IMG/VR virus record: IMGVR_UViG_3300029822_000593
Location: 1 to 43,645 of that record
Reading direction: 5' to 3' (one strand)
Length of the DNA stretch: 43,645 bases
DNA from: a virus
Taxonomy: Duplodnaviria > Caudoviricetes
This document shows positions 5,330 through 43,066 of the stretch, in pieces. The stretch's first letter is position 1; every line of letters starts with the position of its first letter. The notes beneath the pieces were generated by a model. That model made no database searches. It was not told the DNA's origin and saw only the letters and a program-made list of their open reading frames with translations. A program made the position numbers and the translations under genes.

Positions 5330-5899
5330 ATGGCGGATGCAATTGTGGAACAGTTACTCCCCGAAGTTAAAAGCAATTTGCATATAACTTGGAATGATGA
5401 AAGTACAGACGCAAATATAAGAGGCTATATAGCAAGGGGAATGGCACGCCTAAGCGATATTGCGGGCACCCCTGACCTGGACTTTGTGACAGATGGACAG
5501 CCTAAGGCTCTGCTCCTGGATTATTGCAGATATGCCAATAGCCAAGCGCTTGAGATGTTCGAAAAAAATTTTGGAGGTGAGCTATTGGATCTAAATTTAG
5601 GATGCCAGTTCGAGGAACCAGAAAAATTGGACGTGGTATCCCAGGCGGGAACGCTCGCAGGAAACACAAAAATATCCGTGTCCCCAAGTTTAGATTCTGG
5701 GGACACATATGTATACAAAGTGGGGAAAAATCTGGTTTTGCCGGGGTATTTTTCTGTATGTAGCATTACAGAAGGCTACTTTATATGGGATGGGAATTCC
5801 GATATAGCAGCTACCGCCGGAGATGATATTGTGGTTGTCGAGGTGGACGACAGGAACAAAGCGATACGAGCAGGAAAAACAACGACAGTAGTGAGGTGA
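5330..5899 (+). CDS. Head-tail connector (gp6-like) with C-terminal beta-rich extension
   Basis: VKSNLHITWNDE...LLLDYCRY N-terminal domain; extra ~90 aa ending WDG...IVVVEVD...KA. Confidence 0.75.
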   Translation: MADAIVEQLLPEVKSNLHITWNDESTDANIRGYIARGMARLSDIAGTPDLDFVTDGQPKALLLDYCRYANSQALEMFEKNFGGELLDLNLGCQFEEPEKLDVVSQAGTLAGNTKISVSPSLDSGDTYVYKVGKNLVLPGYFSVCSITEGYFIWDGNSDIAATAGDDIVVVEVDDRNKAIRAGKTTTVVR

Positions 5900-7957: not shown

Positions 7958-7990
7958 GAGAGGGCTTCAAAGGCTCTCTTATTTATTTTT
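7958..7990 (+). terminator. Intrinsic terminator after the major tail gene
   Basis: gagagggctt-caa-aggctctctt followed by a T-rich tail. Confidence 0.65.
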
Positions 7991-8061
7991 AAGAAAATAT
8001 AATTATACATATGGTGAATTACTAGATTGAAATTATTTTAAAATCAAAATTTTTAAGGAGG

Positions 8062-8478
8062 ATGATTCAGATGGAAGGCAAGGACTTGCAAAATAAAGGC
8101 GTCGAAATTATGGTAGATAAAAAGAGGCGATTGATATATGACATGAACGCATATTGTCTGTTCGAAGATAAATATGGGAGTGTAATGGATGCATTTAAAG
8201 CACTGGAAACTGGGAGTACGCATAAAGAGAGGTGGCTCCTATGGGTAGGACTTCAGCACGATTTGAGAGAGGCTGGGGAGGAAATGACCGAGGAGGATAT
8301 CGGGACATACCTTGATACAGTTGAAAAAATAAATAAAGCACATGAGCTGATAAGCGTAGCTCTGTTTGGCTCTGCTCCGAAAAGCGACGGCAAACAGAAA
8401 ACGCCCAGCAAAAGCGGAGGACAAAAAACTTCCGTGGGCGAGGTTGATAAATCTAAGCAAACTTCTGGGAATGACTGA
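8062..8478 (+). CDS. Tail assembly chaperone (G-like)
   Basis: Between MTP and tape measure; LIYDMNAYCLFEDKYG motif. Confidence 0.75.
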   Translation: MIQMEGKDLQNKGVEIMVDKKRRLIYDMNAYCLFEDKYGSVMDAFKALETGSTHKERWLLWVGLQHDLREAGEEMTEEDIGTYLDTVEKINKAHELISVALFGSAPKSDGKQKTPSKSGGQKTSVGEVDKSKQTSGND

Positions 8479-8599
8479 AAAAGAGTTTTGGAATTGCACG
8501 CTCAAGAAATTTATGCTGTTGTGGGATGATTATAAAATCCTTAACGGCATAGAAGAGCCCAAGGGAAAGAAAAAAGTATATGTAAATGACATTTTTTAG
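8366..8599 (+). CDS. Tail assembly chaperone, second part (T-like); start uncertain or reached by frameshift
   Basis: Overlaps the preceding ORF in the +1 frame; LGMTEKEFWNCTL motif typical of the T segment. Confidence 0.65.
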   Translation: MALLRKATANRKRPAKAEDKKLPWARLINLSKLLGMTEKEFWNCTLKKFMLLWDDYKILNGIEEPKGKKKVYVNDIF

Positions 8600-8601
8600 T
8601 A

Positions 8602-8630
8602 TGGAAAATAAGCCCTGAATTTGATAATAT
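8602..8630 (+). promoter_or_regulatory. Candidate sigma-A promoter of the moron gene
   Basis: TGGAAA-17 nt-TAATAT with TG extension, followed by an AAGGAGG RBS. Confidence 0.4.
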
Positions 8631-8655
8631 ATAAATATAAGGAGGGGTTCACTTT

Positions 8656-9255
8656 ATGAAAAAAAGATTAATCATCGAAATTGTGTGTGGCGTCATAATT
8701 TTTGCTGTTGGCTATTTTGTAGGGGATGCATCTGCTGTAAAAAGAGTTAATGAGACTGTGGATAGCAAAGTATCCCAAGAAGCGTCAATGGCCCAAACGG
8801 CTTCTTCTCGGCCTAAAGAAAAGATGTATAAAATAGGCGAGGAAGGTGCTTCGGGCAACTTAGTAATGAAGATATTGGGCGTTCAAGAGACAAACACAGT
8901 AGAGGGCGGAGACAGTTCCCAGACAAAAACCACAGACCAAAAATACATTGTGGTTAAATTGCAACTTACCAATAAATCTCAAGCAGCCATCCAATATTCT
9001 GATGAAGATTTTGTATTAGGAGATTCTAAAACAAAAACGCAATATAAAGCAAATACAGATGCGGGAGCGGCGGCTAACAATAAAGAGACCATATACAAGG
9101 AAAATAATGAATTTGTAGGGGAAAATGATGACATTAATCCTAATACACCAAAACAGACCTATATTGCGTTTGAAGTGCCTAAGGATTTTAACCTGCAAAA
9201 TGCAGTACTAATAAACACAAAAAACGGGAAGACAACAGGCTTTTATTTAAAGTAA
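8656..9255 (+). CDS. Membrane-anchored DUF4352-like protein (moron)
   Basis: N-terminal hydrophobic anchor; YKIGE, YIVVKLQLTNKS and INPNTPKQTYIAFEVPKD signature; flanked by promoter-like and terminator-like signals. Confidence 0.8.
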   Translation: MKKRLIIEIVCGVIIFAVGYFVGDASAVKRVNETVDSKVSQEASMAQTASSRPKEKMYKIGEEGASGNLVMKILGVQETNTVEGGDSSQTKTTDQKYIVVKLQLTNKSQAAIQYSDEDFVLGDSKTKTQYKANTDAGAAANNKETIYKENNEFVGENDDINPNTPKQTYIAFEVPKDFNLQNAVLINTKNGKTTGFYLK

Positions 9256-22174: not shown

Positions 22175-22618
22175 CTAACATTTTTTATCCCCCCTAGGCA
22201 TTCCATACACCCGCACCATGGCGGGCTTTGTAATAAGCCAAGTAGCCCCAGACTGCCTATATTCATCCTCTCTGAAACGCCCTTGTCTAATAGCATTTCT
22301 GAGTACGGACCCATCAGATAATCCCCATTTTTGCGCCGCCTCAGCTAATGTGTATACATCATCCAGCAGACCACCTAGGATTTTGTCTGGGTCTTTCCGC
22401 TTATAAACACTCATACTGGAGGACTCCCACCTGCCGGTGGGAAACTTCGTGTACATTATACTGCCATATTCGTCCTCATTGTCGATTATTTGCAGGGCAA
22501 CATTGTCCCCCAGAGTAATAGCTGATCCGTCTTCCAGTTGCACCATATTCTTTCCTATATATTTTCCTGCCAACCCTGTAATTTCTTCTGCCTTCTGTTC
22601 AAAATACTTTGGTAGCAT
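22175..22618 (-). CDS. Protein with C-terminal helix-turn-helix domain; last gene of the leftward operon
   Basis: YTLAEAAQKWGLSDGSVLRNAI...RQSGATWLITKPAM..VYG HTH signature. Confidence 0.8.
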   Translation of the reverse strand: MLPKYFEQKAEEITGLAGKYIGKNMVQLEDGSAITLGDNVALQIIDNEDEYGSIMYTKFPTGRWESSSMSVYKRKDPDKILGGLLDDVYTLAEAAQKWGLSDGSVLRNAIRQGRFREDEYRQSGATWLITKPAMVRVYGMPRGDKKC

Positions 22619-22676
22619 CTATATATCCCCTTTCTCAGGACAATCATTTTCATCAACATTAGTACGTTTGTCCATG

Positions 22677-22994
22677 CTAGTCAACTCCCTTTTCCTCCAG
22701 AAATGCCTCCAAATTCTCGCCATAGTCAAGTTCATCCTCCGACACGTTTCGCACGTATTCGGCATCATATTCGTCGCCAGTAAGGATTTTTTCAAATCCT
22801 TCTGATTCATCCTGCGCTATCTCCTTCCCATATTCTTTGGTTTCTCCAAAGTCCTCTGCATACACTATCACGTCCATTATGTCTGTTTTAGGATTATACA
22901 TAACTGCGAAACGTGTCGTGTATTTGTCTATTTCTCCACATTCTACCAGCTTTTTAAATGCCTTTGTATACAATTCTTTTTTATTCATTCCCAT
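22677..22994 (-). CDS. Small acidic hypothetical protein (105 aa)
   Basis: AAGGAGG RBS places the start at 22994 (MGMNKK); strongly D/E-rich C-terminal half. Confidence 0.75.
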   Translation of the reverse strand: MGMNKKELYTKAFKKLVECGEIDKYTTRFAVMYNPKTDIMDVIVYAEDFGETKEYGKEIAQDESEGFEKILTGDEYDAEYVRNVSEDELDYGENLEAFLEEKGVD

Positions 22995-23036
22995 ATTATA
23001 TTCCTCCTTATGGCAGGTTTTTGGCACCCGCCAGCC
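22991..23036 (-). repeat. Hairpin + RBS unit, copy 1
   Basis: Minus strand ggctggcgggt-gccaaaa-acctgcca-taaggaggaatataatatgg; matches copy 2. Confidence 0.8.
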
Positions 23037-23044
23037 TAATAATC

Positions 23045-23614
23045 CTACAATTGTAAATCTATTTTGGATTGGCGAATCGCTTCGCTATCCTTTTTCCACT
23101 GGGAAGTACCTATCCCAAGATGGTATTCTAAAATTTCTGCTACTTCCCAATAATCTGGTGTGTTTGATTCCACAATTTTCCCATTTTTAACCTTGATTGT
23201 GGCATCATAGCAAGAGAATTTTTTTTTGCCTTCTCTCTTACCTTTTTCCTCCAACATTACAATAGCCTTCTGTATATTTTTCTGCATTTGTGGTTCGCAT
23301 TCGGATATCTGTCGATATAAAAATTCTACATTGTGTTTCCCATTCCATGAATCTAGTAAATACTGTAAGTCTTTCTTTAAGCCTTTAAGAATTTTAAATT
23401 TATAACGGGATTCTAATTGCAACGTAATCTTAGGATTGTCCCAATCCTCTAAAAATACAATGTCAAAAATCTCTTTATCTGGCGAACCTTCCTTATATAA
23501 TACCCTAATACAATTAGCTGGAAAAATTGAATTTATTTTCTCCCCATGTGGCTGTCCACTTACATTATATAATTCTCCTTCTATTAATTTTTCTATATCA
23601 GTATACTTTTCCAT
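23045..23614 (-). CDS. Hypothetical protein (189 aa)
   Basis: AAGGAGG RBS places the start at 23614 (MEKYTD); no family recognised. Confidence 0.75.
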   Translation of the reverse strand: MEKYTDIEKLIEGELYNVSGQPHGEKINSIFPANCIRVLYKEGSPDKEIFDIVFLEDWDNPKITLQLESRYKFKILKGLKKDLQYLLDSWNGKHNVEFLYRQISECEPQMQKNIQKAIVMLEEKGKREGKKKFSCYDATIKVKNGKIVESNTPDYWEVAEILEYHLGIGTSQWKKDSEAIRQSKIDLQL

Positions 23615-23657
23615 ATTATATTCCTCCTTCTGGCAGTTTTCTGGATAACTGCCAACC
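23611..23657 (-). repeat. Hairpin + RBS unit, copy 2
   Basis: Minus strand ggttggcagtt-atccagaa-aactgcca-gaaggaggaatataatatgg; the 19-nt RBS-to-start block is identical to copy 1. Confidence 0.8.
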
Positions 23658-23676
23658 AAAATATACTCTATAACTG

Positions 23677-24114
23677 TTAATATCTACCCGCGAAAGCTTT
23701 TTCATGTCCGATGTCGAAAGCAACAAGCATAAGCTGCTTTTTCATGTCCATTCTAGCGAGTCTAATTATGGAAGCATTTCTCATATCTATCCAGTTGGAA
23801 GCATTTTCAACACTAAATATTCTTTCAGCTGCGGCAGTAAGTTCAGCAACATATTTCTTGTTTTCTGCATCTTTCAAATCCTCTTGCTCTTTCTTCCAGT
23901 CCTTCATTTTTTCATCTCTAATTTTCTCAGCCCATGCAACTTGCTTCTTTGAACCCTTCAACTCAACCATTATATCTTCAACCTCCTTTAAACTCGAAAG
24001 GAGATAACTCATCTCCAGTCCAAACTGGAATTTATAAGTAACTATTGGAAATTCCAGTTTCATGTTCCTTGTTTCTTCGTGCGCCTTCCTTATTAACTCA
24101 CCTGTAAATTTCAT
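23677..24114 (-). CDS. Hypothetical protein; first gene of the leftward operon
   Basis: AAAGGGG RBS; LKGSKKQVAWAEKIR motif; internal in-frame RBS and ATG at 23970. Confidence 0.75.
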   Translation of the reverse strand: MKFTGELIRKAHEETRNMKLEFPIVTYKFQFGLEMSYLLSSLKEVEDIMVELKGSKKQVAWAEKIRDEKMKDWKKEQEDLKDAENKKYVAELTAAAERIFSVENASNWIDMRNASIIRLARMDMKKQLMLVAFDIGHEKAFAGRY

Positions 24115-37040: not shown

Positions 37041-37089
37041 CGTAACAAAGTAAAGATTGTTCTATATAACCCTCCTTTATAAATAATAT

Positions 37090-37141
37090 GCCCGCGGCTC
37101 CAGGGCGAAAATATGGGGCTGCCAATGCGGCGCAAGCCGTA
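37090..37141 (+). ncRNA. Candidate structured leader RNA (possible pseudoknot plus GNRA hairpin)
   Basis: GC-rich island in an AT-rich leader: gccc/gggc, gcggctcca/tggggctgc and tgcggc-GCAA-gccgta. Confidence 0.4.
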
Positions 37142-37179
37142 AATTTAAAAATCACTATTGTGTGTTGTGTGTCTAGGAG

Positions 37180-37207
37180 ATAGGCGTCGGAAACGGCGTC
37201 TATTTTC
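37180..37207 (+). terminator. Terminator/attenuator hairpin in the late leader
   Basis: ataggcgtcg-GAAA-cggcgtctat followed by a short T run. Confidence 0.55.
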
Positions 37208-37233
37208 ATATCCAAAAATAGAAGGCGATTAAT

Positions 37234-38298
37234 ATGCTAGATGCTGAAACATTTTATAAAATAACAAACACTACACAACATTCGGAGTTTGAGGCTTATT
37301 TAAAAAATATATTATTCAAGCCCGAAGAACGAAAGGAATTTTATAATGCACTTTTAAAAGTAGATTGTAATGTATATAAAGACACATTTAAGGATTATTT
37401 TGAGGAGTACAATGCAGAGAGGAAAACCCACAAACAGGACTATACGCCCGATTCGGTCTCTAAAATACTGGCAATGCTGACACGGAGCGACGCCGAAACA
37501 TTCCAAAAGGCGGGGTATTCTGCGTATGATCCAACGGCAGGAACGGGTTCATTGCTGATTCAAAAATGGAGGGATGACCAGCTTGCAGAAACCTTATGGA
37601 GTTATGCACCGCATAGGTATTTATATCGGGCGGATGAGCTGGCGGACAATGTCATCCCGTATCTTATCCACAACCTGGCTATCAGGGGTATGAACGCAAT
37701 AGTAGTGCATGGTGATTGCCTTGAAGGCAAGGTTAAACAGGTCTACTTCATACAAAATAGCAAAGACGATTTTCTAAGATATAGTGACATAAATGTGATG
37801 CCACACTCCAAAATGGTAGCAAAAGAATTCGGAGTAAAAGAATGGACACAAAACGAAATAAAACATATCGAAAGTGGGCAAGTAATATGGCATAGAGCGT
37901 TACCAATGCAGAGAAAAGCCTTAGAAGTTAATCCGAATCCGGTGCTGGGAGAATATTCAAGCCCGGATGGCCACCTGCAACTAAAAGATGTGGCAAGTGT
38001 AGAACGCTCTAAAAAAAACAAGATTTATCCAAAAGGCGCAATAGTAATCCAGATAAGCGCGACGAGGGGAGAAGTGGGCTTGCTGACATCCAGTGGTAAG
38101 GTCGGGAGCCAGTACGCAGTTGCAGAACCTACGCCGTGGGTAGACTCTGAGTTTCTTTTCTACTGCGTAAAGAGGAACATTAAAAAGCATTTCCATAAGT
38201 ATCAAACAGGACTGAATGCAACATTAGATACAGTGGAGAATATACCGATAGCCATGCCTATATGCAGCTCTTTTATTTTATGTGGAGGAAGTGAGTGA
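37234..38298 (+). CDS. N6-adenine methyltransferase-like SAM-binding protein fused to a TRD-like domain; catalytic motif IV not found
   Basis: QDYTP (motif X), YDPTAGTGSLL (motif I), HGDCL; C-terminal LKDVASVERS...IQISATRG...QTGLN; no NPPY/F/DPPY. Confidence 0.75.
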   Translation: MLDAETFYKITNTTQHSEFEAYLKNILFKPEERKEFYNALLKVDCNVYKDTFKDYFEEYNAERKTHKQDYTPDSVSKILAMLTRSDAETFQKAGYSAYDPTAGTGSLLIQKWRDDQLAETLWSYAPHRYLYRADELADNVIPYLIHNLAIRGMNAIVVHGDCLEGKVKQVYFIQNSKDDFLRYSDINVMPHSKMVAKEFGVKEWTQNEIKHIESGQVIWHRALPMQRKALEVNPNPVLGEYSSPDGHLQLKDVASVERSKKNKIYPKGAIVIQISATRGEVGLLTSSGKVGSQYAVAEPTPWVDSEFLFYCVKRNIKKHFHKYQTGLNATLDTVENIPIAMPICSSFILCGGSE

Positions 38299-38453: not shown

Positions 38454-38558
38454 ATGAAATACAAGGATAAGTTCAATGGCGAAGTTGTGAAGGAGATTAA
38501 ATTCTACCGGGTTGTAAAGCTATCATGTAAGGGTGAGAGGCCTTTACCTACTCTATAA
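38454..38558 (+). CDS. Small protein (34 aa), absent from the ORF track
   Basis: AAAGGAGGAG RBS; MKYKDKFNGEVVKEIKFYRVVKLSCKGERPLPTL. Confidence 0.45.
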   Translation: MKYKDKFNGEVVKEIKFYRVVKLSCKGERPLPTL

Positions 38559-38571
38559 TACATATCCCCTA

Positions 38572-38607
38572 AAGACACTTAGATTAAATTCTAGGTGTCT
38601 TATTTTT
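38572..38607 (+). terminator. Hairpin/terminator immediately upstream of csf1
   Basis: aagacacttaga / tctaggtgtctt 12-bp stem (one G-U) followed by attttt. Confidence 0.65.
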
Positions 38608-38621
38608 ATGCTTGAAAAGAG

Positions 38622-39389
38622 GTGAGAGCAATTACAAATACAGAGATATTATATTCAGCATTAGGGAACCCAAAAGTTGAAAACTTGGAAAGTATAGACA
38701 CTAATTGCCTAATATGCGGCAAGCATATAGCAGAAGGTGCAAAAGCCAAAAAAGTATTATCTTCAAACTTTACAAATTGGGGAGATTGCAAGAATAGAAT
38801 AAGCCAATATATTTGTAAAGAATGTGCAGGGGTAATAAAAGCTAGGGAAGTAAGGGTTAATTCGTTTGTAGCAGATGCAAATAACTTATATCTATTAAAG
38901 AAAAATGATATAGAAGATTATTTGTTTAACCTTGGAAAGTATGTAACTGGTGAATTCGTAGTGGGTATAACCCAAAGTTTTAAAAAGCATAATTCATTCA
39001 GATGTAAGGTAAATTCAGACCCGAAGAGATATTTTATTAGAGAAGAAGACAGAGAATATGTTTTTGATGTAAATAAGCTGAAAAGAGTGTATGAATACTT
39101 AAATGATGCTTATCTACAGTTTAGCAAAGATGAGCTACAAACGGGCAATTATAAGATGATTTCAATTGAACAATTCGGACTTGAAAAGTTTGCAACATAT
39201 GAGGATTTATTTAGCCAATACAGGGGTTCAGCACAATTTGACTTACTAATTTACATGATGAACTCTGAAAAAAGAAACGAATATGTAAAAGCTAAGCAGA
39301 AGGCACAGAAAGAAGAAAAAGCAAGGTTGAAAGCCCTTGAGAAAGAAAAGAAAAAAGCTGCTAAAACCAAACAAATAAGTTTATTCTAG
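38622..39389 (+). CDS. csf1: Type IV CRISPR-associated large subunit Csf1 (Cas8-like)
   Basis: CLICG...SSNFTNW...ICKEC zinc finger; FVVGITQSFKKH..FRCKVN motif; first gene of the csf operon; start codon uncertain. Confidence 0.8.
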   Translation: MRAITNTEILYSALGNPKVENLESIDTNCLICGKHIAEGAKAKKVLSSNFTNWGDCKNRISQYICKECAGVIKAREVRVNSFVADANNLYLLKKNDIEDYLFNLGKYVTGEFVVGITQSFKKHNSFRCKVNSDPKRYFIREEDREYVFDVNKLKRVYEYLNDAYLQFSKDELQTGNYKMISIEQFGLEKFATYEDLFSQYRGSAQFDLLIYMMNSEKRNEYVKAKQKAQKEEKARLKALEKEKKKAAKTKQISLF

Positions 39390-39401
39390 GAGGTATTAAA
39401 A

Positions 39402-39854
39402 TTGTACGAATTGAATAAAGAGAATATTCAAGATGCGGCAGTAGCTACATTGGCAGATATATGGTCTCAAATAGATTGGGACAAGGTAACTGGTACCAGG
39501 GCAATGGGAATATGGGATGAATTCACTTCAAAGGTGAAAGCTTCGGCTACTACAACAAATCAATATGATAAGTTTGTGGAAAAGCTATGCAGGAAGATGG
39601 ATGTTAGATCACTCAGGCATAAAAATGTATCAGAGATTTCAGAACAAACAGATGAATTTAAAAATGCAGTTCTCAAGGCTTTTAGAGAGAAAACCCAAGT
39701 GATTATTTTAAAACTTAGATTAAATAATCAAGTACGTAAAGAACAAATGCAGGCAGAAAAAGCCAGAAAAGAAAGAGAAGAAGCTTTGAATAAAAAGCTT
39801 GAAAATGCTCAAGTAAGTTTTACAGAGAAGGGGGTAAAAGTACATGAGAACTAG
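39402..39854 (+). CDS. cas11: Putative small subunit Cas11 (type IV-B-like)
   Basis: Small helical protein between csf1 and csf2; IWDEFTSKVKASA...FVEKLCRKM; AGGAGG RBS, TTG start; call rests mainly on position. Confidence 0.65.
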   Translation: MYELNKENIQDAAVATLADIWSQIDWDKVTGTRAMGIWDEFTSKVKASATTTNQYDKFVEKLCRKMDVRSLRHKNVSEISEQTDEFKNAVLKAFREKTQVIILKLRLNNQVRKEQMQAEKARKEREEALNKKLENAQVSFTEKGVKVHEN

Positions 39855-40674
39855 TATAAAATTAACACTTTTAAGTCCACTTAGCCATTTCGGGGACCAG
39901 AGAATGGGCACCATGCAAGCGGCAAGGACACAAAAATATGAATATGAAGGTGAGTACATAGATATTCCTGTATATTCTGGAAACGCCTTTAGGGGTGAAT
40001 TGAGAAGACTTATTATGCAGGATTATTTAGACCATATAGATATTACAGATGAGGGAGTATCAGCCAATCTTTATTATTTGTTGTTTACCGGTGGAGCTTT
40101 GACGAGTGGAAGCCGATATAATGAAATAGGCAAGAAAAGAGAAATGCGTAAGATGTGCCCACCTTTAAGCCTATTTGGTTCAGCTATAGGAGACCAGATA
40201 CCAGAAGGCAAATTGAAGGTGGCTATTTTTGTGCCTGTATGCAAGGAAACGGCAAAGTATACCGGAGCAGAGAATGATACAAGTTTCTATGATATGTTGC
40301 AGGACACCTTTTATACTAGAAGAGATGATTTAAAATCCAAAGATTTCAACATCAATGAAATTGAAGATGAAAAGGGCAAGAAAAAAGAAAACCCAACACA
40401 GATGAAATATGAGATGCAGTGTTTGAGCGCCGGTACTGAATTAGCCGGAGATATAGTTATAGAAAATGATAATGAAGTTGAAAAAGCTTGTTTGAAAGCA
40501 GGGCTTGAGAAGCTGAAAGAATATGGCTATATAGGCGGTAAAAGCTCAATAGGGCATGGGAAAATTAATCTTGATTATGATATAGACGTTGATATAAAAG
40601 TATATTACGACTATCTGGAGGAAAATAAAGACGCCATAAGAGAATGGATTAGAAATATGGAGAAGATTTTATAA
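39844..40674 (+). CDS. csf2: Type IV Cas7-family backbone protein Csf2
   Basis: RAMP motifs LLSPLSH, IPVYSGNAFRGELRR, LFTGGAL, PPLSLFG, TRRDD, QMKYE; G-rich loop IGGKSSIGHG. Confidence 0.9.
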   Translation: MRTSIKLTLLSPLSHFGDQRMGTMQAARTQKYEYEGEYIDIPVYSGNAFRGELRRLIMQDYLDHIDITDEGVSANLYYLLFTGGALTSGSRYNEIGKKREMRKMCPPLSLFGSAIGDQIPEGKLKVAIFVPVCKETAKYTGAENDTSFYDMLQDTFYTRRDDLKSKDFNINEIEDEKGKKKENPTQMKYEMQCLSAGTELAGDIVIENDNEVEKACLKAGLEKLKEYGYIGGKSSIGHGKINLDYDIDVDIKVYYDYLEENKDAIREWIRNMEKIL

Positions 40675-41465
40675 TGACATTGGAAGAGTTTATGGAGGTC
40701 GGTTATATAAGGGCTAATTCAAACCAATTCTTTAAAAAATGGGAAAAATCCAAAGAGGTAATAAAAGAACAATTGAAGAAATTTGATAAGCCTTATATAT
40801 GTCTTAGCGCCGGCAAGGATAGTGTAGCTATGGCGTTTATAATTGCAGAGGTAGCGGATGAATTAAATTATAAAAATAATATGTTTCTGTGGGCGCATGT
40901 AAGTGATGCGTCTTTCCCGGGGACAATTAAAACCTTGAATAAAGTATCTGAGAAAACAGGGATAAATCTTATCATAAATGAAAGCCCTGTATCTGCTTTT
41001 TCTACTGTATCTAAAAAAACAGCAAATGATGTTAAAAAATTTGGTAAGCAAGGATATTTCTTTGACGCTATAGATAATTGTATAGAAAAATATAATAGAA
41101 ACTTGGCTTTTATAGGTGTACGAGCATATGAAAGCAGAAGACGTATGAGAGCGGTGAAAGCACATGGAATGGCATTTACATCTCACGTGCCAACATTCTG
41201 TAACATATGTTACCCTATGGCGTGGTATAAGCTTGAAGATGTAGCGGCTACGATAACATTGTATAATGCACCTATGCACCCTATATATTCTAAGATGGAT
41301 ACGAGCATTGGATATACTACAAAAGATGAACATTGGATTAGGCTGGGATATATAACAGCAAGAGATTTAATGGAGAAGGGAACTATTGTGTTTTTAAAGA
41401 GAAACTATCCAGAGCAATATAATAAATTAACCGAAGCTTTCCCGGAGGTGAAAGGGTATGTATAA
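40674..41465 (+). CDS. CysH/PAPS-reductase-like PP-loop protein
   Basis: PP-loop SAGKDS, GVRAYESRRR, YPMAWY..EDV and MHPIY motifs; no C-terminal ECGLH; TAATG-coupled to csf2. Confidence 0.88.
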   Translation: MTLEEFMEVGYIRANSNQFFKKWEKSKEVIKEQLKKFDKPYICLSAGKDSVAMAFIIAEVADELNYKNNMFLWAHVSDASFPGTIKTLNKVSEKTGINLIINESPVSAFSTVSKKTANDVKKFGKQGYFFDAIDNCIEKYNRNLAFIGVRAYESRRRMRAVKAHGMAFTSHVPTFCNICYPMAWYKLEDVAATITLYNAPMHPIYSKMDTSIGYTTKDEHWIRLGYITARDLMEKGTIVFLKRNYPEQYNKLTEAFPEVKGYV

Positions 41466-41868
41466 AAACCATAAAATAGATCATCTAGTAAGGACAACTG
41501 TTCTGACGTATAAAATATGCCAATCTTTAAATGTAAATGAATATGATACTATGATTCTCCTTATTTCTGCACTATTACATGATATAGGCAGAAGAAACAA
41601 TTCAAACGATATAAAGCATGGAGAGATAAGTGCATGCAAAGCAAAGGGACTATTAAAAGACAAAAAAATATTTGACATAATAAAAAATCATTCTATCGGG
41701 GACAGAAATATAAAATCCGAATATAAAGGAATGATTTTAATATTAAAAGATGCGGATGCACTTGAACGTATTAGAAATAATGATTTAAATGTCAAATATA
41801 TAAGAAATAAAGAAAGCTTATGTTTGATTGATTTTGCAAAAAGCTTATTTTCAGAGTTAAGAGGGTGA
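41458..41868 (+). CDS. Stand-alone HD-domain metal-dependent phosphohydrolase
   Basis: H(LVRT)...ALLHDIGR...HGEISA...NHS...KDADALER, a complete HD metal-ligand set. Confidence 0.88.
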   Translation: MYKNHKIDHLVRTTVLTYKICQSLNVNEYDTMILLISALLHDIGRRNNSNDIKHGEISACKAKGLLKDKKIFDIIKNHSIGDRNIKSEYKGMILILKDADALERIRNNDLNVKYIRNKESLCLIDFAKSLFSELRG

Positions 41869-41872
41869 TACA

Positions 41873-42550
41873 ATGTTTAATAATTTTAAAGTAACAGCTA
41901 ATATGTCAAGCCCTATAGCAGTTACAGATTTTATTATATTGGATAGTGTTATATCTGCGGCAATAGCAAAGAAAATAAATGGAGACGAATATTACTCTGG
42001 AGAAAATATTTATGGAACGAAAGAATGGGTTGATAAATATTTAGGACAAGTGCTGGATAGAAAATACGGGGTATATTGTACTTCTATAGGGATAGGAGAT
42101 AATAAAGAATATGTATCATCGTGGTGTAAGAGATGGGACGATTGGCATGATGATATAGTTAGATTTAAAGGCAAAGGCAGGCACAGAGTAGATATAGGTT
42201 CTGGCTTTTTTAAATCTTATCATATGCCGCTGGTTTTGAAAGCATATCCCGAAATTATATTTTATGTTCGGGGTGATTTAAACAAAATAAAAAGCCTACT
42301 TGAAAATTATATATTTTATCTAGGCAAGAAAAGTTCACAGGGATATGGGCAGGTTAGAAAGTGGGAATTTGAGATTATAGAAGAAGATTGGAGCATATGG
42401 AAAGACGGCAAGCCAATGCGACCAATACCTGGTTTGCAATGCCAAGAATATATAAAAAAGAGCAAAAATATAAACCTGCAAGAACATGCTATAATCCCAC
42501 CGTATTGGAGACGAGATAATCGAGAATTATGCGTGATGCCAGATGTTTGA
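41873..42550 (+). CDS. csf3: Type IV Cas5-family protein Csf3
   Basis: FKVTANMSSPI..LDSVI, SGFFKSYHMPL, FYVRGD, G-loop LGKKSSQGYGQV, RPIP and PPYW motifs. Confidence 0.87.
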   Translation: MFNNFKVTANMSSPIAVTDFIILDSVISAAIAKKINGDEYYSGENIYGTKEWVDKYLGQVLDRKYGVYCTSIGIGDNKEYVSSWCKRWDDWHDDIVRFKGKGRHRVDIGSGFFKSYHMPLVLKAYPEIIFYVRGDLNKIKSLLENYIFYLGKKSSQGYGQVRKWEFEIIEEDWSIWKDGKPMRPIPGLQCQEYIKKSKNINLQEHAIIPPYWRRDNRELCVMPDV

Positions 42551-42863
42551 TAGCGCTTCAGAATTTGCAAGGGAACTTGGAGCAGATAGAAAAACTGTTA
42601 TTAATTATATCAAACAAGGTAAAATACAAGCCCATAGATACAAAAACAAGAAATTATATAAGATACCCGAAAATGAAAAAAATAAAATAAAGTATCTTAA
42701 AAAACCATATCCCAAATGGCAAAAGTCATGGAGTGAAGCAGAAGAAAATATGATTAGATATTCTCCTTATCTTAATTCTAAAGAGCTTTCAGGTGTTATA
42801 AAAAGAACGGAAAGCAGTATAAGAGTGCATAAATGTATAATGCGGAAACGAGGTACGCTATGA
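42543..42863 (+). CDS. DNA-binding protein: HTH_17-like N-terminus plus a Myb-like repeat
   Basis: SASEFARELGADRKTVINYIKQGKI...YKIP; WSEAEENMI...SKELS..IKRTESSIR. Confidence 0.7.
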   Translation: MFDSASEFARELGADRKTVINYIKQGKIQAHRYKNKKLYKIPENEKNKIKYLKKPYPKWQKSWSEAEENMIRYSPYLNSKELSGVIKRTESSIRVHKCIMRKRGTL

Positions 42864-43066
42864 GGATAAGAGTAGACTTTTATATAAATGAAGATTTTAA
42901 ATTTAATAAAAACCTTAATGAGGCTATGACAGCATTGTTAGAAGAGGCCAAGCAGACAGCGGACAAACTGAATGGTATGCTTAGGAAATTGAAGAACTAT
43001 AAGGTCGAATCTATACAGAACAATGATAGGCTACATTGCACCTGCGTGCTCAAGCCGGGTGAGTAG
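42860..43066 (+). CDS. Hypothetical protein
   Basis: ATGA-coupled to the HTH gene; GAGG RBS. Confidence 0.55.
   Translation: MRIRVDFYINEDFKFNKNLNEAMTALLEEAKQTADKLNGMLRKLKNYKVESIQNNDRLHCTCVLKPGE

Follow-up and report, generated by a model that had tools for sequence, protein, structure and literature searches.

A type IV-B csf operon, as assigned by sequence, with an apparently exchangeable enzyme slot in a temperate Clostridium phage

The window analysed here, the whole 43,645-nt stretch of IMGVR_UViG_3300029822_000593, is the genome of a temperate Clostridium phage and carries at positions 38622–42863 a csf operon that is, by profile matches and gene content, of CRISPR type IV-B. Comparison of its DNA with that of sister elements indicates that the enzyme slot of the operon is a cassette exchanged at exact gene borders. 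The products probably form a scaffold that carries a swappable enzyme, and the complex likely counters host immunity through chemical modification of nucleic acid, not through DNA cleavage. The case for host CRISPR RNA (crRNA) as the guide is about evenly balanced. The full reading, in which a crRNA-loading, Cascade-like scaffold delivers a swappable nucleotide-modifying enzyme and blunts host type I-B immunity, is offered tentatively, at slightly less than even confidence.

The type IV-B-like identity that the initial annotation had assigned from the letters and translations is borne out by PADLOC profiles, which match all four scaffold subunits (E 1.4e-21 to 1.1e-65). These are encoded by csf1, the Cas8-like large subunit (255 aa, 38622–39389, PDLC01721, E 1.6e-35), cas11, the type IV small subunit (150 aa, 39402–39854, PDLC01695, E 1.4e-21), csf2, the Cas7 backbone (276 aa, 39844–40674, E 1.1e-65), and csf3, the Cas5 subunit (225 aa, 41873–42550, PDLC01727, E 2.5e-46). 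The matches to the NCBIfam models of Csf1, Csf2 and Csf3 are significant, yet lie under the curated cut-offs (46.8 against 140, 51.8 against 130 and 45.5 against 140 bits, respectively). Csf1 carries two CxxC pairs (C29/C32/C65/C68). Among PDB entries the Csf2 profile matched Cas7c of 11fs (1.8e-18), type IV-B Csf2 of 7jhy (1.5e-15) and type IV-A 8rc2 (4.8e-4). All seven open reading frames (ORFs) of the operon lie on the plus strand at the coordinates first assigned, and the tight junctions described for them are present, with gaps of 12 nt between csf1 and cas11 and 4 nt between the HD gene and csf3, and overlaps of 11, 1 (TAATG), 8 and 8 nt at the remaining borders. The sole match of Csf2 among GenBank phages (27%) is in Skermania phage SPI1 (KR011061.1, Orf40–44, locus L153), where all five neighbouring genes carry hypothetical annotation.

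Over 38553–40673, up to the csf2 stop codon, the window shares 91–98% DNA identity with the sister elements L001, L026 and L023. Identity resumes at ~41850 and extends to 42936 in L001 and L023, while in L026 it stops earlier. The cassette between these flanks (40674–41849), of which cysH is the first gene, has no DNA match to the three sisters, and their CysH proteins are 25–26% identical to that of the window. The slot contains CysH, an unknown protein and a glycosyltransferase-like protein in L001 and L026, and a solute symporter and CysH in L023; IbrA/IbrB (PAPS-reductase plus ParB) are added in the slots of other relatives. Further slot cargo comprises a peptidase C39-like protein and a glycosyltransferase (L172, 6717–7852), a 156-aa unknown protein (L208, 3791–4261) and a 160-aa methyltransferase-like protein (L225, 4167–4649).

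The first cassette gene of the window encodes a CysH-like PP-loop enzyme of 263 aa (40674–41465, plus strand; Pfam PAPS_reduct 8.4e-13). The closest folds to its structural model (pLDDT 89.8) are APS/PAPS reductase (Z 17.9, rmsd 2.9, 195 aligned residues), FAD synthase (Z 17.6) and CysD (Z 16.8), followed by GMP synthase and tRNA-modifying PP-loop enzymes. The PP-loop, S45-x-G47-K48-D49-S50 (SAGKDS), and the Arg-loop are invariant and no cysteine is; CysH proteins of the slot end in a K..YP(E/D)...FPEV..YV-like C-terminus without a catalytic cysteine. A PP-loop without the cysteine fits a type IV-B CysH that adenylates a substrate and does not transfer sulfur, as put forward in the accessible portion of PMC8175902. 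For the CysH subfamily of the window, csf genes are present in all 35 close loci and in 42 of the 44 that the CysH profile recovered overall. Within the clade, cysH usually lies between csf2 and csf3.

The second enzyme gene, at 41458–41868 on the plus strand, encodes an HD-domain phosphohydrolase of 136 aa (Pfam HD 6.8e-10) with intact metal ligands (H9, H41-D42, H54, H78, D98/D100). The protein is 34% identical (E 6e-17) to residues 16–151 of an HD::Csf3 fusion in L004 and matches Cas10 weakly (E 4.5e-4). Among 208 loci the HD domain is confined to three lineages: that of the window, where it stands alone, and those of L004 and L006/L039, where it forms the N-terminal part of a fusion with Csf3. 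Since the CysH subfamily of the window mostly lacks HD and the fusions join HD to Csf3, HD is best regarded as pairing optionally with Csf3 and not with CysH, and by analogy it may be physically tethered at Csf3 in the window phage. The family to which it belongs is commonly found as stand-alone genes. The initial annotation had singled out the insertion of both enzymes between csf2 and csf3 as the unusual part of the locus. This claim is weakened, as the position of CysH is normal in the clade and its subfamily almost always lacks HD; a coupled CysH–HD pair was rejected on the same grounds together with the confinement of HD to three lineages. Taken by itself, the inserted HD gene is a modest peculiarity.

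In some relatives the slot holds an enzyme of an unrelated fold. CysH gives way to a TGT-like protein of 230–250 aa in L005/L036/L037, L011, L044/L045 and L055. On a tree built from 42 distinct Csf2 rows, from which L055 was omitted as too short, this replacement falls in three separate positions. The family comprises 247 homologues. Its model (pLDDT 94.5) is a TIM barrel most similar to archaeal TGT 1iq8 (Z 16.9, rmsd 3.1, 216 aligned residues), followed by Cap10 (Z 15.6), DpdA 7ui4 (15.5) and bacterial TGT (15.4), with an unrelated barrel at 14.7; Foldseek agrees. Strands 3, 4 and 8 each terminate in an aspartate (D57, D96 and D209, respectively). In 117 sequences D96 and D209 are invariant and D57 is conserved in at least 90%. 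Paired by strand position, without superposition, they correspond to D95, D130 and D256 of DpdA, two of which are essential by mutagenesis according to passages of PMC10164549. The sequence gave no match in the PDB, Pfam, PHROG or GenBank phages, and its consensus contains no zinc-site motif; placement in the Atlas put the family in a rank-11 cluster with DpdA on 17% of members. From the model, the protein is predicted to be a base-exchange enzyme of the TGT/DpdA fold.

The TGT-like family is tied to csf loci. A search of viral contigs yielded 27 loci, with csf2 adjoining in 26 of the 26 new ones. None had cysH inside the operon, and one cysH-like gene lay 1.4 kb upstream. In five near-identical loci a QueT precursor transporter gene lies between the TGT-like gene and csf3 (Pfam 7e-29, one tested). 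A conserved 306–316-aa protein, weakly glycosyltransferase-like, directly precedes the TGT-like gene in L076 (4024–4944), L084 (4096–5022) and L086 (944–1894). The Csf2 query gave 124 loci, of which the best 80 were taken, and 52 of these were distinct and complete: the slot enzyme was CysH in 41, TGT-like in six, both in none and neither in five (Fisher p 2e-5 for mutual exclusion, kinship uncorrected). In four of the last five, genes resembling IbrA/B or methyltransferases lie within the operon or next to it. That two unrelated nucleotide-chemistry folds occur in one slot, and that its cassettes are swapped, argues for the positioning of an enzyme as the purpose of the complex.

The setting of these operons points to counter-defence, as had been proposed at the outset: host spacers densely target the phages, and lysogens target their own prophages. 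Among genomes, the window is matched most closely by a prophage in Clostridium lapidicellarium MT-113 (Csf2 93%), a strain with two type I-B systems whose cas ORFs are full-length. Four arrays, one of them partial, provided 312 spacers. Of these, 51 match the window at ≤3 mismatches, 24 perfectly, and none of 175 reversed spacers did. The protospacer-adjacent motif (PAM) was TTA in 19 of 25 system-A matches and TCA in 21 of 26 system-B matches. By these matches the phage likely infects C. lapidicellarium or a closely related species; a fermentation Clostridium is the likely host. Host spacers also hit the operon, at 39823 (cas11/csf2 junction, TTA PAM) and 42406 (csf3, non-PAM flank).

The csf prophage of C. 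lapidicellarium sits integrated between chromosomal genes and is matched by 55 of the 312 spacers of its own host; 30 matches are perfect, all 30 with a proper PAM (TTA or TCA). Interference therefore looks blocked in this strain, and self-targeting is described in the accessible text of PMC10732046 as the usual sign of prophage-borne CRISPR inhibition. In Alkalithermobacter thermoalcaliphilus, with full-length I-B cas ORFs, 11 of 24 spacers match its own csf prophage, six of them perfectly. No chromosomal self-target was found. Within the host family csf2 is present in one of 388 scored genomes (13 more were unscored). In a third genome, G003, a cas locus resembling type I-C is present, with no array in the stretch examined.

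The neighbourhood of csf in the C. lapidicellarium prophage appears, by gene content, to be one of anti-CRISPR (Acr) functions, with the operon directly following small genes that include an HTH_59 protein and a solitary repeat. As in this prophage (L023), the operon of L001 directly follows an Acr-like island. In the window a candidate Acr island lies at 22175–24114 on the minus strand, where four small genes between lysin and integrase include an HTH_59 protein, with repeat families D2/D4 upstream; for two of them the C. lapidicellarium prophage has homologues (89% and 58%) directly 5' of csf1. Known Acr models gave no match to the small proteins of the window and prophage islands.

A second link to CRISPR is Cas6. 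The absence of cas1, cas2, dinG and a CRISPR array noted in the initial annotation holds, and so does that of an intact cas6, but a 25-codon 5' remnant of cas6 at 42860–42936 (plus strand) had been missed. It runs on into unrelated sequence as ORF 42860–43066, whose first 25 residues are identical to Cas6 of L001 (Pfam Cas6_C 2.6e-18), and DNA identity to the L001 gene breaks abruptly at 42936. Cas6 is intact in the sisters L001 and L023. A 29-kb contig of run X5, from another study, spans 38553–42936 unbroken, with cysH and HD included, and then continues into cas6-like sequence. The residue identity and this contig point to a parent block csf1-cas11-csf2-cysH-HD-csf3-HTH-cas6, from which the window phage has lost cas6, probably by recombination.

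Six-frame translation of the window revealed no Cas1, and Cas or DinG models matched none of the 49 other ORFs nor 11 further ones outside the operon. The window contains neither an Rfam match nor a CRISPR-like repeat family, an Rfam E-value scan of four cas6-bearing loci gave no matches, and no mini-array was found in the window or L001–L060. Among 148 further loci (with duplicates) an array was found in L211 only, the other matches being tandem or iteron-like repeats. That array (7982–8672) is type I-C-like and has 11 repeats; it lies on the strand opposite to cysH, 950 nt and three genes past it, and no cas1 or cas2 was seen near it. Cas6 of three Pfam families (PF01881, PF10040 and Cas6f PF09618) nevertheless occurs in or beside array-less csf operons, which suggests that repeat-containing RNA is supplied in trans. 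The Cas6f (Csy4) or PF10040 genes in question are at 5684–6166 of L084, 5738–6385 of L062 and 4346–4993 of L120. Cas6 of L023 resembles the system-A Cas6 of the host (26%, E 2e-14), not that of system B. L023 also contains, at 8438–8466 between its Acr-like island and csf1, a solitary near-copy of the system-A repeat with three edits (shuffled sequences never gave fewer than six), a candidate RNA anti-CRISPR (Racr) or substrate of the phage Cas6. The 36 nt after it match nothing elsewhere in the DNA compared. A solitary type I-C-like repeat, six edits from that of L211, occurs in L071 (~9443), ~3.8 kb after a csf-TGT operon.

The record is a whole virus genome by CheckV and is classed as linear; head, tail, lysis, integrase and repressor genes were assigned by reading the translations of the window ORFs. 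The operon is flanked by rinA and a methyltransferase gene on one side and by the HNH gene that precedes terminase on the other. Its higher AT content was also confirmed: GC is 33.7%, against 43.9% for the structural genes, and lies below all 138 equal-length segments elsewhere in the genome (minimum 38.4%). The last of the seven genes (42543–42863, plus strand) encodes a helix-turn-helix (HTH) protein of 106 aa (Pfam HTH_17 3.1e-6), likely a regulator. It accompanies the operon in one subclade, a cluster of eight, either 5' or 3' of csf3. Contigs from RNA libraries of two studies span the operon and may be DNA carry-over.

Upstream of the operon, the gene at 37234–38298 encodes an N6-methyltransferase fused to a type I specificity domain; it is dispensable, since a run X3 contig skips 37212–38309. 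A terminator-like hairpin of 12 bp with a T-rich tail lies just 5' of csf1 (38572–38601, plus strand; folding z -3.97 for 38545–38625) and is also present in the sister elements, whose homology begins at 38553. Another structured non-coding stretch (37075–37215, z -3.87) follows rinA. Its hairpin at 37094–37122 (GGGC..AA loop), the loop and stem of which recur 5' of csf1 in L001, L023 and L026, was considered as a general guide and rejected because it is not comparably placed in other clades.

In the mechanism proposed, Csf2 and Cas11 would polymerise on an RNA whose ends are capped by Csf3 and Csf1. The loaded RNA would be host crRNA or other repeat-derived RNA, cut by the phage Cas6 where present and by the host Cas6 in the window phage. 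The PP-loop of the CysH-like enzyme would then adenylate a nucleic-acid acceptor, and in relatives the TGT-fold enzyme would instead exchange guanine. The mark could disable the captured crRNA, or could mask protospacers of the phage itself, to which host crRNAs already lead at no cost. HD at the Csf3 end may serve, where present, to trim RNA ends or nucleotide by-products. A more specific form, RNA-guided base modification as an anti-CRISPR, has host crRNAs steer an exchangeable enzyme head, a putative PP-loop adenylyltransferase or 7-deazaguanine transglycosylase by its modelled fold, to mask the targeted phage protospacers; it is considered unlikely.

Several observations weigh against a crRNA-loading complex that blunts type I-B immunity. 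In the available part of PMC7937560, a co-expressed type I-E crRNA was not enriched in the Mycobacterium IV-B complex (~0.12% of reads), and portions of 10.1101/780106 report that IV-B co-occurs negatively with I-B, I-C, I-E and II-C. The window has no array, and a gapped scan found no host-like solitary repeat within six edits of five repeats. The cas6 gene is absent from most csf loci and lost in the window phage. With rinA, a late activator, on one side and the HNH gene for packaging on the other, the operon may be silent in the lysogen. Small Acr-like genes are present in both self-targeting prophages, accompanied in one of them by a Racr-like repeat, and these alone could explain survival of the lysogens without csf; self-targeting rests on two genomes, without a csf-free control. 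The TGT fold can also serve protein-modification pathways, as in Cap10.

The same position, between rinA and the terminase/HNH genes and beside a dispensable DNA methyltransferase, would suit a CRISPR-independent scaffold that carries phage or random RNA and modifies progeny DNA late in infection against restriction-type defences. The slot cargo of relatives resembles DNA-modification genes (IbrA/IbrB, glycosyltransferases, a methyltransferase-like gene, QueT, a solute symporter), non-specific RNA loading is published in the consulted portion of PMC7937560, and cas6 is dispensable. Against this explanation, Cas6 of three families at array-less loci is hard to account for without repeat-containing RNA, and the operon position varies, following the Acr-like island in L001 and L023. 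Phage methylases and DpdA, moreover, are not known to need such a scaffold. The explanation is judged fairly improbable.

A passive crRNA sponge, an anti-CRISPR that acts by sequestration with the enzymes secondary, was proposed earlier in parts of 10.1101/780106 and PMC8175902. It would agree with the self-targeting lysogens, the adjoining Acr-like genes and solitary repeat, and the lack of a nuclease or helicase. Sequestration, however, needs no chemistry, whereas the catalytic motifs are conserved, a CysH or TGT-like gene is kept in 47 of the 52 loci, and IbrA/B- or methyltransferase-like genes occur in four of the other five; a pure sponge is quite unlikely. It is more doubtful still that the complex turns host spacers against rival phages and plasmids, silencing or marking them in the way that type IV-A uses arrays of its own. 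Type IV-A does take part in contests among mobile elements (PMC11656645, in the part available), and the distant L211 does have its type I-C-like array close to cysH, but such an array is present in one of the 148 loci scanned and in neither the window nor L001–L060, and host arrays are rich in spacers against these phages, so that borrowed guides would aim the complex at the genome of its own phage. That the locus is decaying, or its cassette genes are unrelated morons that landed in the operon, is scarcely credible: cas6 is truncated and HD is rare and of a family common as stand-alone genes, but all seven ORFs are uninterrupted and coupled, the 29-kb contig of the other study carries the whole stretch from csf1 to HTH unbroken with cysH and HD in place, csf genes accompany the CysH subfamily at 35 of 35 close loci, and two other lineages have HD fused to Csf3.

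What type IV-B does is acknowledged to be unsettled, and the literature, as far as the portions consulted go, points to CysH as key. Already described in the accessible parts of 10.1101/780106, 10.1101/270033, PMC8175902, PMC11656645 and PMC10848311 are IV-B in prophages, the CysH link, the rarity of cas6, and the sponge and modification hypotheses. The available portion of the 2025 classification (PMC12669027) lists IV-B without a tested mechanism and does not mention CysH or transglycosylase, and the main text of PMC10910872 contains no IV-B, CysH or TGT. Nothing relevant on a transglycosylase with type IV was found in main texts, mostly open-access; supplements may list HD or TGT associations. 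The cassette swap, the host, the cas6 loss and the self-targeting lysogens are new here. C. lapidicellarium MT-113, with a sister operon and cas6, two I-B systems and 30 perfect self-targeting spacers, offers a test system, and the value of the finding lies in a swappable slot and a named self-targeting host strain that open the IV-B question to direct tests. If true, an RNA-guided base writer of natural origin would be a new kind of anti-CRISPR and possibly an editing scaffold.

Compared with known systems, the window operon shares with types IV-A and IV-D the Csf1/2/3 core and, in sister phages, Cas6, and IV-D also occurs in Firmicutes; the window lacks the DinG and array of IV-A and the RecD, cas6 and array of IV-D. 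With IV-C it shares Cas11, an HD domain and a best Csf2 match in the PDB named Cas7c (11fs; the link to IV-C is from the name). The large subunit, however, is a 255-aa Csf1, not a Cas10-like protein with fused HD, and HD is encoded as a protein of its own (136 aa), linked to Csf3. Features of Racr and Acr islands recur in the C. lapidicellarium prophage, where a solitary host-like repeat and small genes flanked by HTH lie directly 5' of csf1; in the window there is no solitary repeat and the Acr-like cluster is 15 kb away. The CysH-like enzyme differs from true CysH (PAPS reductase) and DndC in lacking the catalytic cysteine. The relatives' enzyme resembles DpdA/TGT and CBASS Cap10 in its TIM barrel, closest to TGT/DpdA, in the three aspartates that end strands 3, 4 and 8, and in a QueT neighbour in some loci, but it is ~230 aa long, has no zinc-site motif and no Pfam or PHROG match, and adjoins csf genes in 27 of 27 loci. 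The IV-B system of Mycobacterium sp. JS623 (PDB 7JHY) is likewise on a mobile element without array, adaptation genes or helicase, and has the same csf1, csf2, csf3 and cas11 subunits and a CysH-like partner with a PP-loop and no catalytic cysteine. In contrast to JS623, the window operon belongs to a clostridial phage clade, has cysH between csf2 and csf3 and carries additional HD and HTH genes. It retains a remnant of cas6, a gene intact in its sisters and called rare in portions of 10.1101/780106, and in some of its relatives a TGT-fold enzyme takes the place of CysH.

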